44,223 bases of DNA from Escherichia phage EM1. A program made the translations under genes and the position numbers. The notes under the pieces were generated by a model. That model was given only the letters and a program-made list of their open reading frames with translations, was not told the origin of the DNA and did not search any database. The stretch lies in the sequence record PQ571293; one strand, given 5' to 3'. Of this stretch, positions 33,582 to 40,778 are shown in pieces. How positions within the stretch are numbered: position 1 is the first letter of the stretch; the number at the start of each line of letters is the position of its first letter.

Positions 33582-33869
33582 CTAACTATAATAGTTTGCT
33601 ATTAGGTCGTCAACCTGTTTAAACGAGCCAACGACAAAAACATTCGCGCCACGTTTGCGCATACGCTCATGCTCACGTAGCTGGTGTGGGTCTGGCTTCG
33701 TGTTTTCGTCTTTCTTAACCTCGACGAACCAGATGATGCCGCCGGGGATGATTACCAACAGGTCAGGAGCACCTACTCTATTTTCGTACGACAATTTTCT
33801 AACGAGGCCCCCCAGGGCCTCGAATCGCTCTTTTGCGTATTTCTGTACGCGGCCCTCTTTAGTCGCCAT
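33582..33869 (-). CDS. VRR-NUC domain nuclease (PD-(D/E)xK family)
   Basis: motif GAPDLLVI...FVEVKK; about 95 aa, typical size and position in phage polymerase/helicase modules. Confidence 0.65.
   Translation of the reverse strand: MATKEGRVQKYAKERFEALGGLVRKLSYENRVGAPDLLVIIPGGIIWFVEVKKDENTKPDPHQLREHERMRKRGANVFVVGSFKQVDDLIANYYS
33585..33613 (-). promoter_or_regulatory. sigma70-like promoter on minus strand, TTGACG -35, 17 nt spacer, TATAGT -10
   Basis: minus-strand reading TTGACGACCTAATAGCAAACTATTATAGT; lies within the 3' end of the VRR-NUC ORF. Confidence 0.5.
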
Positions 33870-34356
33870 GGTTGCAAAACTCTCCGTGCAGTTTTGCCCT
33901 AAATTCTCTCAGCGATTCCTCTGCTTCATTTAGGTTCTGGAAATACCCAATCTGGTAGCGTGTACCTTTAAAAGCAACTCGAGCGCACCAAGCATTATGA
34001 GGCTTACTCCAGTTAACCCCTTTCACGCCGCTGGTGTTCGTAACTGGGGTCTTGCGGTTATGGTTCTGTTGAAATTCATCCGCAAGCCGTAGGTTACAAA
34101 TCCGGTTATCGTCTCGTATGCCGTTAATATGGTCTATTTGCTTAGTTGGCATCTCTCCGTATACCCACCACCACGCCAGCCTGTGTGCGCGGTAATACAC
34201 CCTATTCCATCCTAACAATATGTACCCTTTACGGTCCTTGTAGGTAACAACATCTCCAGGTTTCGCGGTCTGGCATCTGTGCTTGACCCATTTAAATATC
34301 CCGGTATCCGGGTCGTATGACAGAAAATCTTTTATATCGTCACTTGGTGCTTTCAT
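33859..34356 (-). CDS. HNH homing endonuclease with AP2-like DNA-binding domain (paralog 2)
   Basis: N-terminal DIKDFLSYDPDTGIFKW, HNH core HRLAWW...IDHINGIRDDNRICNLR, C-terminal SGVKGV...; overlaps both neighbours. Confidence 0.8.
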   Translation of the reverse strand: MKAPSDDIKDFLSYDPDTGIFKWVKHRCQTAKPGDVVTYKDRKGYILLGWNRVYYRAHRLAWWWVYGEMPTKQIDHINGIRDDNRICNLRLADEFQQNHNRKTPVTNTSGVKGVNWSKPHNAWCARVAFKGTRYQIGYFQNLNEAEESLREFRAKLHGEFCNHGD

Positions 34357-34556
34357 AATAACGGCTCCGCGTCTGGGTTACGCAGGAAGTACGCTTGATA
34401 GATGTCGTGTTCCGTGTAGTAAACACCTTTGTGCGTACACCCCGCACAAACGTCACTAAAGAACCCATCACCCATTACCAAGATAAATTCCCATTCTGGC
34501 ATATCCACTAACGCGGCTAGTTTCTTACTAAATGGTTTGTTACTCATAATACGCAC
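34353..34556 (-). CDS. hypothetical protein (67 aa)
   Basis: ORF with ATGA overlap to HNH gene. Confidence 0.4.
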   Translation of the reverse strand: MRIMSNKPFSKKLAALVDMPEWEFILVMGDGFFSDVCAGCTHKGVYYTEHDIYQAYFLRNPDAEPLL

Positions 34557-34629
34557 CCCTCCCGTTTCGTATGCTCAATCCCGCAGCGCGGACAGATTCG
34601 GCAGTCTTCTTCGTAGAACCAGTAAATTT

Positions 34630-34761
34630 TCATTCCAGCACCCACAGATAAATTGCGATGAACATACCCAACACGGCGACCATCATGCCGTATTGGCCCT
34701 CGTGACAGTAGACACCGGCGGCGAATCCCGCCAGTACCGCGATAATCAGTTTACTTAGCAT
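34630..34761 (-). CDS. hypothetical small membrane protein (43 aa)
   Basis: short ORF below the track cutoff, hand translated (MLSKLIIAVLAGFAAGVYCH...); start overlaps polymerase stop. Confidence 0.25.
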   Translation of the reverse strand: MLSKLIIAVLAGFAAGVYCHEGQYGMMVAVLGMFIAIYLWVLE

Positions 34762-40212: not shown

Positions 40213-40228
40213 GCGGCCCGAAGGCCGC
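40213..40228 (-). promoter_or_regulatory. intercistronic RNA hairpin with UUCG tetraloop on the minus-strand transcript
   Basis: GCGGCC-TTCG-GGCCGC (minus-strand reading) directly after the stop of gene 40236-40718. Confidence 0.4.
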
Positions 40229-40235
40229 GGGATAA

Positions 40236-40718
40236 TTATTCTTCTTCAAAATACTTGTTCTTGATTGCCGTCAGGCGTTCAAGGTACTCAGCCAGGTCTT
40301 CGTCTTTAATCGCGGCAATCTTCATCTTCTTACCGGTGAACTCTTCCAGCAGTTCATCGGAATCATCACACGCGGCATCGCTCGGACCTTCGTTAATCGC
40401 ATCGTCGATAGCCTGAATCTGGTCACGCAGAGACTGGTAATCTACTTCTTCCTTCTCTTCTTCCGGCTCTGGCGTTGGTTCCTCTACTTTAGCTTTACGC
40501 GGCTTGCGTTTTGGCTTCTCTTCTTCTGCCGGTTTAGTGTCGACGAGGTCTTCACCTTCGACCGGGATTTCTTTTGCTGTCCCGATTGTTGCGGTTTGTT
40601 CAACGACCCCGCTAACTAATGCAGTTTTTGCAACATTAACTTGTTTCGCGCTATTCGCAGCAATTAGTTCATGCGCAACTACGAAACGTTCAAGTAATTT
40701 TAAGAATTGGTCTAACAT
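40236..40718 (-). CDS. hypothetical highly acidic protein with Glu/Lys/Pro-rich low-complexity linker
   Basis: GAGGAGAG RBS; first gene downstream of minus-strand promoter 40750-40778; EEEKPKRKPRKAKVEEPTPEPEEEKEE segment. Confidence 0.45.
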   Translation of the reverse strand: MLDQFLKLLERFVVAHELIAANSAKQVNVAKTALVSGVVEQTATIGTAKEIPVEGEDLVDTKPAEEEKPKRKPRKAKVEEPTPEPEEEKEEVDYQSLRDQIQAIDDAINEGPSDAACDDSDELLEEFTGKKMKIAAIKDEDLAEYLERLTAIKNKYFEEE

Positions 40719-40749
40719 TTGTTTCTCTCCTCTCGTTTGGTATGGGCTA

Positions 40750-40778
40750 ACTATAATAGCGAACTATTCACATGTCAA
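40750..40778 (-). promoter_or_regulatory. sigma70-like promoter on minus strand, TTGACA -35, 17 nt spacer, TATAGT -10
   Basis: minus-strand reading TTGACATGTGAATAGTTCGCTATTATAGT; divergent from the HTH gene. Confidence 0.55.

Follow-up and report, generated by a model that had tools for sequence, protein, structure and literature searches.

A 14-bp palindrome at shifted positions in the sigma-70 promoters of Escherichia phage EM1 is a candidate operator for a Cro-like regulator

Escherichia phage EM1 (sequence record PQ571293) is a Kagunavirus-like siphophage of the Guernseyvirinae, and the stretch of DNA analyzed here (hereafter the window; 44,223 base pairs, bp) represents its complete, circularly permuted genome. 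The top three sigma-70-like sites of the whole genome, which we term P1, P2, and P3, carry between their -35 and -10 hexamers a 14-bp palindrome, AATAG-N4-CTATT, that recurs at other positions within further promoters of the phage. As read from the sequence, the palindrome may be an operator bound by a dimer of a small helix-turn-helix (HTH) protein of the HTH_3 family, which would repress the early promoters together with its own gene; we give this account an even chance of being correct.

The preliminary description of this DNA had proposed three minus-strand promoters of the form TTGACR-N17-TATAGT, at the head of the leftward operon, ahead of the single-stranded DNA (ssDNA)-binding gene, and ahead of the gene that follows VRR-NUC, and both the promoters and their placement hold up. 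With up to one mismatch allowed, this pattern occurs exactly three times genome-wide, always on the minus strand, against an average of 0.32 expected from dinucleotide shuffles, none of which (0 of 100) reached three. The three sites match the sigma-70 consensus at 10–11 of 12 positions around a 17-bp spacer, and are conserved in ~40 relatives, where all variants of the orthologs keep spacers of 17–18 bp. P3 lies 31 nucleotides (nt) ahead of the open reading frame (ORF) at 40718, the first of the leftward operon, while P2 precedes an Enc34-type ssDNA-binding gene at 38066 (Pfam E=7e-16) by 58 nt; the position originally given for P2, 38124-38152, was one base off (Table 1), those of the other two being accurate. 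P1 coincides with the 3' end of VRR-NUC, namely its final 10 codons (..VDDLIANYYS, then the stop codon), with the next ORF 33 nt on, and would drive orf63, an HNH-like ORF, and an SNF2 helicase. Hexamers, spacing, placement 31–58 nt upstream of same-strand ORFs, and conservation at orthologous positions are all those expected of sigma-70 promoters, and in the record of phage Jersey (NC_021777) the P1 and P2 orthologs are already marked as such.

The shared spacer strings that had been singled out earlier (TAATAGCA in P1 and GAATAGTT in both P2 and P3) are indeed present in all three promoters, but the element extends further than GAATAGTT: the string constitutes the left arm of the 14-bp dyad, whose right arm abuts the -10 hexamer. 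The resulting layout of these class-1 promoters is TTGACR-(3-4 nt)-AATAG-N4-CTATT-ATAGT, where the last T of the right arm doubles as the first T of the -10. With no more than one mismatch, the palindrome has 11 matches in the genome against 1.23 expected, a count that 0 of 100 shuffles reached. Six matches are exact (beginning at 1310, 12360, 21896, 33590, 38130, and 40755); every spacing from N0 to N12 other than N4 yields zero or one exact copy, and the everted arrangement of the arms shows no comparable peak across the same spacing control. In a census of all palindromes with 5-bp arms and gaps of 0–8, AATAG-N4-CTATT ranks first in both the window (six copies) and Jersey (four); next come palindromes with three copies, several of them G+C-rich stems of terminator-like hairpins. 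Nine of the 11 matches fall in promoter regions: seven within the 4.8% of the genome that a crude gene call leaves intergenic, and two more at P1 and in the divergent region at 21896. As RNA, the palindrome folds with only -2.5 kcal/mol and no Rfam family was found in 33000-44223, which argues for a signal at the level of DNA and led us to reject a role as an RNA hairpin or attenuator. Scanning the viral contigs of IMG/VR for AATAGNNNNCTATTATAGT returned Kagunavirus-like contigs along with many single, probably chance, matches in unrelated contigs, and identified no other phage group with the palindrome.

Between 33000 and 41500 the window shares ~90% DNA identity with E. coli phages such as EP-B-K_E2, and a lower-coverage relatedness with ~450 E. 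coli and Salmonella phage records; our comparison drew on 37 IMG/VR loci around the HTH gene and on the complete genomes of Bas75, Sciku, Jersey, Kenya-K5, 26YS, SM86, and SS3e, and counts at P1, P2, and P3 refer to unique sequence variants among 39–43 related loci. Of the variants of P1, P2, and P3, respectively, 16/18, 15/17, and 23/23 keep the left arm intact and 17/18, 16/17, and 23/23 the right arm, as strong a conservation as that of the -35 and -10 hexamers themselves. The four-nucleotide center, by contrast, exists in nine, eight, and seven versions, and the gap between the -35 and the palindrome in four, 10, and 12, including length changes from 4 to 5 nt. At P1, where the promoter overlaps coding sequence, some of the substitutions in the center alter the VRR-NUC protein (N to S, D, or G), yet the codons of the arms do not vary. 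The P1 ortholog of Jersey (TTGATA-AATT-AATAG-AACA-CTATT-ATATT) differs from that of the window in -35, gap, center, and -10, yet retains both arms, and when four copies from the window are aligned with three from Jersey, AATAG emerges as an invariant block. Sites contacted by symmetric protein dimers classically show this pattern of fixed arms amid a free center and free flanks. Two palindrome-free promoters used as a conservation control (P_hth17 and 4147) offered 10 and three unique variants, too shallow a sample for a strong control.

The palindrome is not confined to one place within the promoter. It had been suggested that the spacer element is shared, at a different position, with a separate class of promoters marked by ACTATTC, and the positions match what a single factor would predict. 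In this class 2 (CTTGCACACCCCAAYATAATAGGRTACTATTCA, i.e., TTGCAC-N17-TACTAT), which includes minus-strand members, the palindrome ends one base past the -10 and sits 6 bp further downstream than in class 1, where it spans about -25 to -12; its center accordingly lies at ~-12.5 instead of ~-18.5. The shared element is real, and the two classes differ mainly in where the dyad is placed. They do not exhaust its placements: in two promoters that read into structural genes, at 4269 and 12456, the center and right arm of a one-mismatch palindrome form the -35 hexamer itself, with the center at ~-33.5. Bas75, Sciku, and Jersey all share the imperfection of the first copy (4264), Bas75 and Sciku also that of the second (12451), and one Jersey ortholog displays yet another register. 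The second of these promoters was listed as host promoter HP1 in phage fBC-Eco01 (PMC9825357). That the palindrome slides relative to the hexamers yet always overlaps the core promoter indicates an independent operator as opposed to an element recognized by the polymerase. The earlier suggestion that one factor contacts both classes at different positions is, in light of these shifted registers, the best reading of the data; the temporal switching that was proposed along with it is so far conjecture.

It is conceivable that no dedicated trans-acting factor exists, and that the palindrome is either intrinsic to the promoters, as AT-rich, -10-like hexamers with bidirectional symmetry, or inherited from duplicated cassettes. 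The arms do resemble -10 elements (ATAAT, TATTAT), the reverse complement of CTATTATAGT holds a perfect TATAAT, of the four class-2 copies three are found between divergent genes, and common leader strings suggest cassette duplication. Bidirectionality, however, fits poorly with P1 and P2, which lie inside a one-directional operon where no -35 was found for an antisense promoter. Nor does resemblance to a -10 explain the inner G/C of each arm, which is invariant and outside any -10 consensus, the strict N4 spacing, the presence of the same dyad over -35 hexamers, or arms that stay fixed across genomes and two genera while flanks and center diverge. We consider an explanation without a trans-acting factor improbable.

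The motif has been described before, under a different label. In fBC-Eco01, seven sites reported by PHIRE were presented as phage RNA polymerase promoters with the consensus tgAATAGTa-ccTATTat-T, among them the orthologs of the P1 operator (PP4) and of O2, the second operator at the HTH_3 gene, whereas the host-promoter list of the same paper omits all three class-1 promoters (PMC9825357). Seven PHIRE "conserved promoter sequences" were likewise listed for phage Golestan, entries 4 and 5 being the orthologs of O1, the P3 operator, and of O2, respectively (PMC7203180). Both studies treat the motif as a promoter and note neither dyad symmetry, nor an operator role, nor its embedding in sigma-70 hexamers (PMC7203180; PMC9825357), and our full-text literature search found the motif mentioned in these phages nowhere beyond these two papers. 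The motif has thus been seen previously under the wrong label. Apart from those PHIRE sites, which the fBC-Eco01 text attributes to a phage RNA polymerase, little speaks for a phage-encoded polymerase. No RNA polymerase domain is found in any window ORF of at least 380 amino acids (these encode terminase, portal, tape measure, tail, helicase, DNA polymerase A, nuclease, and helicase-primase), and the annotations of Bas75, Jersey, and Sciku contain none; moreover, the motif is a palindrome and lies among sigma-70 hexamers. On the missing polymerase domain we take this reading to be refuted, and leave it almost no probability.

Only two candidate DNA-binding proteins are encoded by the phage, and they are the products of the two HTH genes that had been named at the outset as possible binders; both are credible, one with an HTH_3 and the other with an HTH_17 domain. 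Among solved structures, the HTH_3 protein is matched best, over residues 6–68, by 434 Cro (E=7e-6) and by the repressor of the same phage (E=1e-5). P3 and the HTH_3 gene point away from each other and are separated by O1 and O2. For the HTH_3 gene a promoter is predicted whose -35 shares bases with the distal arm of O1 and whose start site would lie within O2. An 18-bp direct repeat, TTGAYATGTGAATAGTWC, is also present in this divergent region, where it constitutes a tandem duplicate of the P3 -35 and operator with a degenerate -10 (P3').

Part of the covariation between operator and protein speaks for HTH_3. In genomes with the Jersey recognition helix (SLITH), the base flanking the operator arm is T in 40/40 half-sites, while in genomes with the Kagunavirus helix (GAINQ) it is G in ~47%, whichever HTH_17 allele they carry; phage SS3e carries the Jersey HTH_3 allele. 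The Cornellvirus VSiP, whose HTH_3 is 41% identical and which lacks HTH_17, has in its promoter regions the palindrome TATTA-N6-TAATA (equivalent to TATTAG-N4-CTAATA), with seven matches against ~0.9 expected and a half-site that differs from TAATAG at one position. Together with the 434-like domain and the two operators beside the gene, this leads us to favor HTH_3 over HTH_17 as the binder of the operator, at a confidence that is about even.

Several observations weigh against this assignment. Although the HTH_3 proteins of the window and Jersey are just 48% identical, with helices SQGAINQ and SQSLITH, the AATAG core is the same in both genera. The exact palindrome co-occurs perfectly with HTH_17, seven genomes having both and VSiP neither, and the VSiP palindrome was chosen post hoc from a census. 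The covariation (a flank base that tracks the HTH_3 allele, a different Cornellvirus palindrome, and a core unchanged despite the helices) rests in essence on one Kagunavirus/Jerseyvirus split and one Cornellvirus outgroup, and is phylogenetically confounded. Finally, the arms are AT-rich and -10-like, such that part of their conservation could be promoter-intrinsic.

The HTH_17 protein, a 56-residue MerR/Xis-like winged helix, provides the chief alternative. Produced early from an operator-free promoter (TTGATT-N17-TATACT, without the palindrome), it would place two copies on the spacer dyad, either repressing or tuning the promoters in a MerR-like manner. Throughout the 442 Kagunavirus and Jerseyvirus records its sequence is 80–100% identical, with no match beyond these two genera, which fits the invariance of the AATAG core; a search of 5.8 billion proteins returned no distant homologs, every match being at least 77% identical. 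Each of the seven examined genomes that carry HTH_17 contains three to eight exact copies of the palindrome, while the whole VSiP genome has no HTH_17 and zero palindrome matches. Its structural model is a winged HTH (predicted local distance difference test, pLDDT, 75) whose nearest folds are RacA, the MerR-type domains of CarH and NmlR, Xis, BldC, and RdfS, some of them solved on promoter or palindromic DNA. In the sole RNA sequencing study of a Kagunavirus, which followed phage K1B4 at eight time points over 120 min and reports gene-level peaks only, the "HTH domain" gene 008 is among the four earliest genes, and 004 ("specific DNA binding") and 005 ("AAA") belong to the middle class (PMC12645636). 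By gene order alone, 008 is probably HTH_17, 004 probably HTH_3, and 005 probably the AAA_25 helicase-primase.

Set against these points, the flank preference is independent of the HTH_17 helix allele (46–47% G with either; 52 G and 54 T with RRTL; 68 G and 74 T with RQTI), and Jersey genomes share the RRTL helix with the window yet have 0% G at the flank. Cornellvirus keeps promoter palindromes without HTH_17, and a Pfam scan of its small ORFs revealed no replacement regulator. The protein has no evident dimerization element in its 56 residues, all its fold matches have E > 0.04, and the spacers are already optimal at 17–18 bp, so that activation of the MerR type is not called for. HTH_17 is a possible binder, though a somewhat unlikely one.

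A host transcription factor of E. coli or Salmonella that binds the palindrome and is exploited by the phage would account for a core that is identical in phages of both hosts despite divergent HTH_3 proteins. The TAG-N4-CTA core also resembles the SlyA/RovA consensus, TTAGCAAGCTAA, a lead and not a test. However, the motif is missing from the Cornellvirus of Salmonella, each phage genus has its own flank preference, and the center is unconstrained, whereas the SlyA/RovA consensus specifies it. A host factor is very unlikely.

Returning to HTH_3 as the favored regulator, the following sequence of events can be envisaged. After injection, host RNA polymerase would fire P3, P2, P1, and the class-2 promoters. 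P3 would start the leftward DNA-replication operon, with P2 and P1 serving as internal boosters for the ssDNA-binding gene and the genes after VRR-NUC. As the regulator accumulates, it would bind the dyads over the -35, spacer, or -10, and exclude polymerase at most phage promoters, so that replication and accessory transcription, as well as the synthesis of HTH_3 itself, would be turned down, as by Cro in lambdoid lytic growth. Were operators to form a hierarchy of strength, promoters with exact copies would be shut first, and those with conserved one-mismatch copies (4269, 12456, and O2) later or more weakly, which would produce a temporal shift. A bolder version, to which we attach a low probability, sees a genome-wide timing circuit in which one regulator acts through one palindrome at three registers, and operator quality and position order the shut-off of replication, accessory, and structural units; the binder in such a circuit might even be HTH_17 acting from the spacer.

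The arrangement invites comparison with well-understood systems, of which phage 434 is the closest. Like 434 Cro, EM1 HTH_3 is small (71 amino acids), with detectable similarity to both 434 Cro and repressor. The OR and OL operators of 434 are dyads of 14 bp in which the outer arms are conserved and the center is free, and the candidate operators of EM1 share this build and are likewise embedded in early promoter cores. In both phages an early operon is read away from the regulator gene, the two being separated by more than one operator, and by analogy turn-down and autoregulation are predicted for EM1. There the likeness ends: EM1 is strictly virulent and has no immunity region, and neither an integrase nor a second cI-type gene that could act as the cI partner was detected in the window or in annotated relatives; its operators are scattered over ~10 promoters and not clustered at two sites; two operators, not three, lie at the regulator gene; and the half-site is AATAG with an N4 center versus ACAA with N6. 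The EM1 candidate pair would therefore be Cro-like in action and not a lambdoid immunity region.

With the MerR family (MerR, SoxR, CueR), EM1 shares the location of the class-1 dyad between -35 and -10 and, judging from its model, a MerR/Xis-like fold of HTH_17. Unlike MerR systems with their suboptimal spacers of 19–20 bp, EM1 has spacers of 17–18 bp and places the same dyad over the -10 or -35 in other promoters, and unlike MerR proteins, HTH_17 comprises the winged HTH only, without a coiled-coil dimerization helix or effector domain. A third parallel is found in the stoperators of mycobacteriophage L5 and cluster A, where many short sites genome-wide subject many transcription units to one regulator, in EM1 a candidate one. 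Stoperators are asymmetric, oriented with transcription, lie mostly inside transcribed regions, and block elongation, in contrast to the EM1 site, which is palindromic and located in promoter cores. Overall, the design appears to be a conventional repressor–operator system, closest to 434 Cro and its operators minus the lysogeny partner, and would represent no new kind of regulation.

The Guernseyvirinae (Kagunavirus and Jerseyvirus) are among the phages most often isolated for therapy and biocontrol of E. coli and Salmonella, and their transcription programme is essentially unstudied. The operator reading corrects an existing annotation as phage RNA polymerase promoters, offers a compact model of early shut-off in a virulent phage with two candidate proteins and ~ten sites, and may furnish well-defined, strong, repressible promoter parts for phage engineering. 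Coordinates of the elements discussed, and of the gene blocks, as assigned by placing the Bas75 proteins on the window, are compiled in Table 1.

Table 1. Promoters, palindromes, candidate regulators, and gene blocks of the EM1 genome (window positions)
Feature	Position	Strand	Remarks
P1, TTGACG-N17-TATAGT	33585-33613	-	Ortholog annotated as promoter in Jersey, 29238-29266
P2, TTGACA-N17-TATAGT	38125-38153	-	Ortholog annotated as promoter in Jersey, 32925-32953
P3, TTGACA-N17-TATAGT	40750-40778	-	Head of leftward replication operon
P3', TTGATA-N18-AATTAT	40793-40822	-	Degenerate tandem copy of P3, O2 in spacer
P1 operator, (T)AATAG-CAAA-CTATT(A)	33590-33603		Exact palindrome in P1 spacer
P2 operator, (G)AATAG-TTAG-CTATT(A)	38130-38143		In P2 spacer
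O1, (G)AATAG-TTCG-CTATT(A)	40755-40768		In P3 spacer
O2, AATAG-TACC-ATATT	40799-40812		One mismatch; 44 bp from O1; listed by PHIRE in relatives
Class-2 promoter, TTGCAC-N17-TACTAT	1294-1322	+	Palindrome 1310-1323 overlaps -10
Class-2 promoter, TTGCAG-N17-TACTAT	12361-12389	-	Palindrome 12360-12373
Class-2 promoter, TTGCAC-N17-TACTAT	21897-21925	-	Palindrome 21896-21909
Fourth class-2 promoter (junction)	44206-44223 (5' part) and 1-14 (3' part)	+	Cut by window ends; TACTAT 5-10, right arm CTATT 7-11
Promoter, TTGACT-N17-TATATT	4269-4297	+	One-mismatch palindrome 4264-4277 over -35; annotated promoter in Jersey, 42343-42371
Promoter, TTGACT-N17-TAAGCT	12456-12484	+	One-mismatch palindrome 12451-12464 over -35
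Predicted HTH_3 promoter, TTCACA-N16-TAAAAT	40767-40794	+	-35 40767-40772, -10 40789-40794; consensus match only
HTH_3 gene (434-Cro-like, 71 amino acids)	40843-41058	+	Lone rightward HTH gene (Bas75 mapping); Pfam HTH_3 PF01381, E=1.1e-12; favored candidate for operator-binding regulator
HTH_17 gene (MerR/Xis-like winged helix, 56 amino acids)	43604-43774	-	Second small HTH gene; rival candidate binder; own promoter 43807-43835
Small genes and lysis genes	45-3978	rightward	Bas75 mapping
Structural genes	6700-31092	rightward	Interrupted by two leftward islands; Bas75 mapping
Long replication/recombination operon	40718 down to 31121	leftward	Bas75 mapping
Helicase-primase block	43316-41076	leftward	Bas75 mapping

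A number of further observations concern the class-2 promoters. The junction promoter lacks one T relative to Bas75 and Sciku (ATAA|AGGA vs ATAATAGGA), which breaks the left arm and leaves a 16-bp spacer; its palindrome is intact in both relatives, and the missing T is probably an artefact of linearization, of the cut in the record, or of assembly. The class-2 elements at 12360-12373, at 21896-21909, and at the junction, which are the three in divergent intergenic regions, carry on the opposite strand a TATTAT -10-like hexamer together with weak -35 candidates, and might be bidirectional promoters that share one operator. One additional one-mismatch palindrome, TATAGTATGCTATT (10034-10047, + strand), shares bases with the ATG start codon of the head-morphogenesis gene, immediately behind a terminator hairpin. 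It is retained in Bas75, in SS3e, and in Golestan, where it is among the PHIRE sites, and may be an operator or a coding coincidence.

Among the Cornellviruses, an exact census of repeated 8-mers and 9-mers yielded coding-sequence repeats only. Downstream of the helicase-primase gene, VSiP carries the direct repeat GTGAATAGTTAT twice (11640-11760), and phage SE1 has one exact and one imperfect copy (11880-12000). In both phages G-rich GGGGGAGA repeats follow, and the region looks like an iteron or origin. The GTGAATAGTTAT repeats imply that the AATAG half-site is present in the subfamily outside the palindrome context. Phage S.Inf 5-2 was dropped from the comparison as an unrelated temperate phage with a 434-type cI/Cro pair.

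The block that encodes HTH_3, the helicase-primase, and orf77 (40843-43607) shows 48%, 64%, and 66% identity to Jersey, respectively, compared to 88–98% for the neighboring replication genes, which indicates a mosaic or exchanged module. Within the leftward replication operon, three paralogous HNH-type (homing-endonuclease-like) ORFs of 165 amino acids each (32866-33363, 33859-34356, and 36912-37409, minus strand), which share 32–44% identity, occupy three separate insertion sites, two of them flanking the VRR-NUC/P1 region.

The leaders downstream of the promoters also display recurrent features. Just downstream of P2, in the 5' leader of the ssDNA-binding gene, lies a stem-loop (CCGGG-CAGTT-CCCGG, 38098-38112, minus strand, -8.4 kcal/mol) that is absent from Rfam; its stem is kept and its loop variable in Kagunavirus, Jerseyvirus, and Cornellvirus, and it could be a translational or autoregulatory element. 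The leader string ACACCAACAAT follows both P1 (33560-33580, minus strand) and the 21925 promoter (21870-21890, minus strand), and a second string, (A/C)AAACGAGAGG, follows P3 (40725-40745, minus strand), the 1294 promoter (1325-1345, plus strand), and the junction promoter (15-35, plus strand); these common strings suggest duplicated promoter–leader cassettes.

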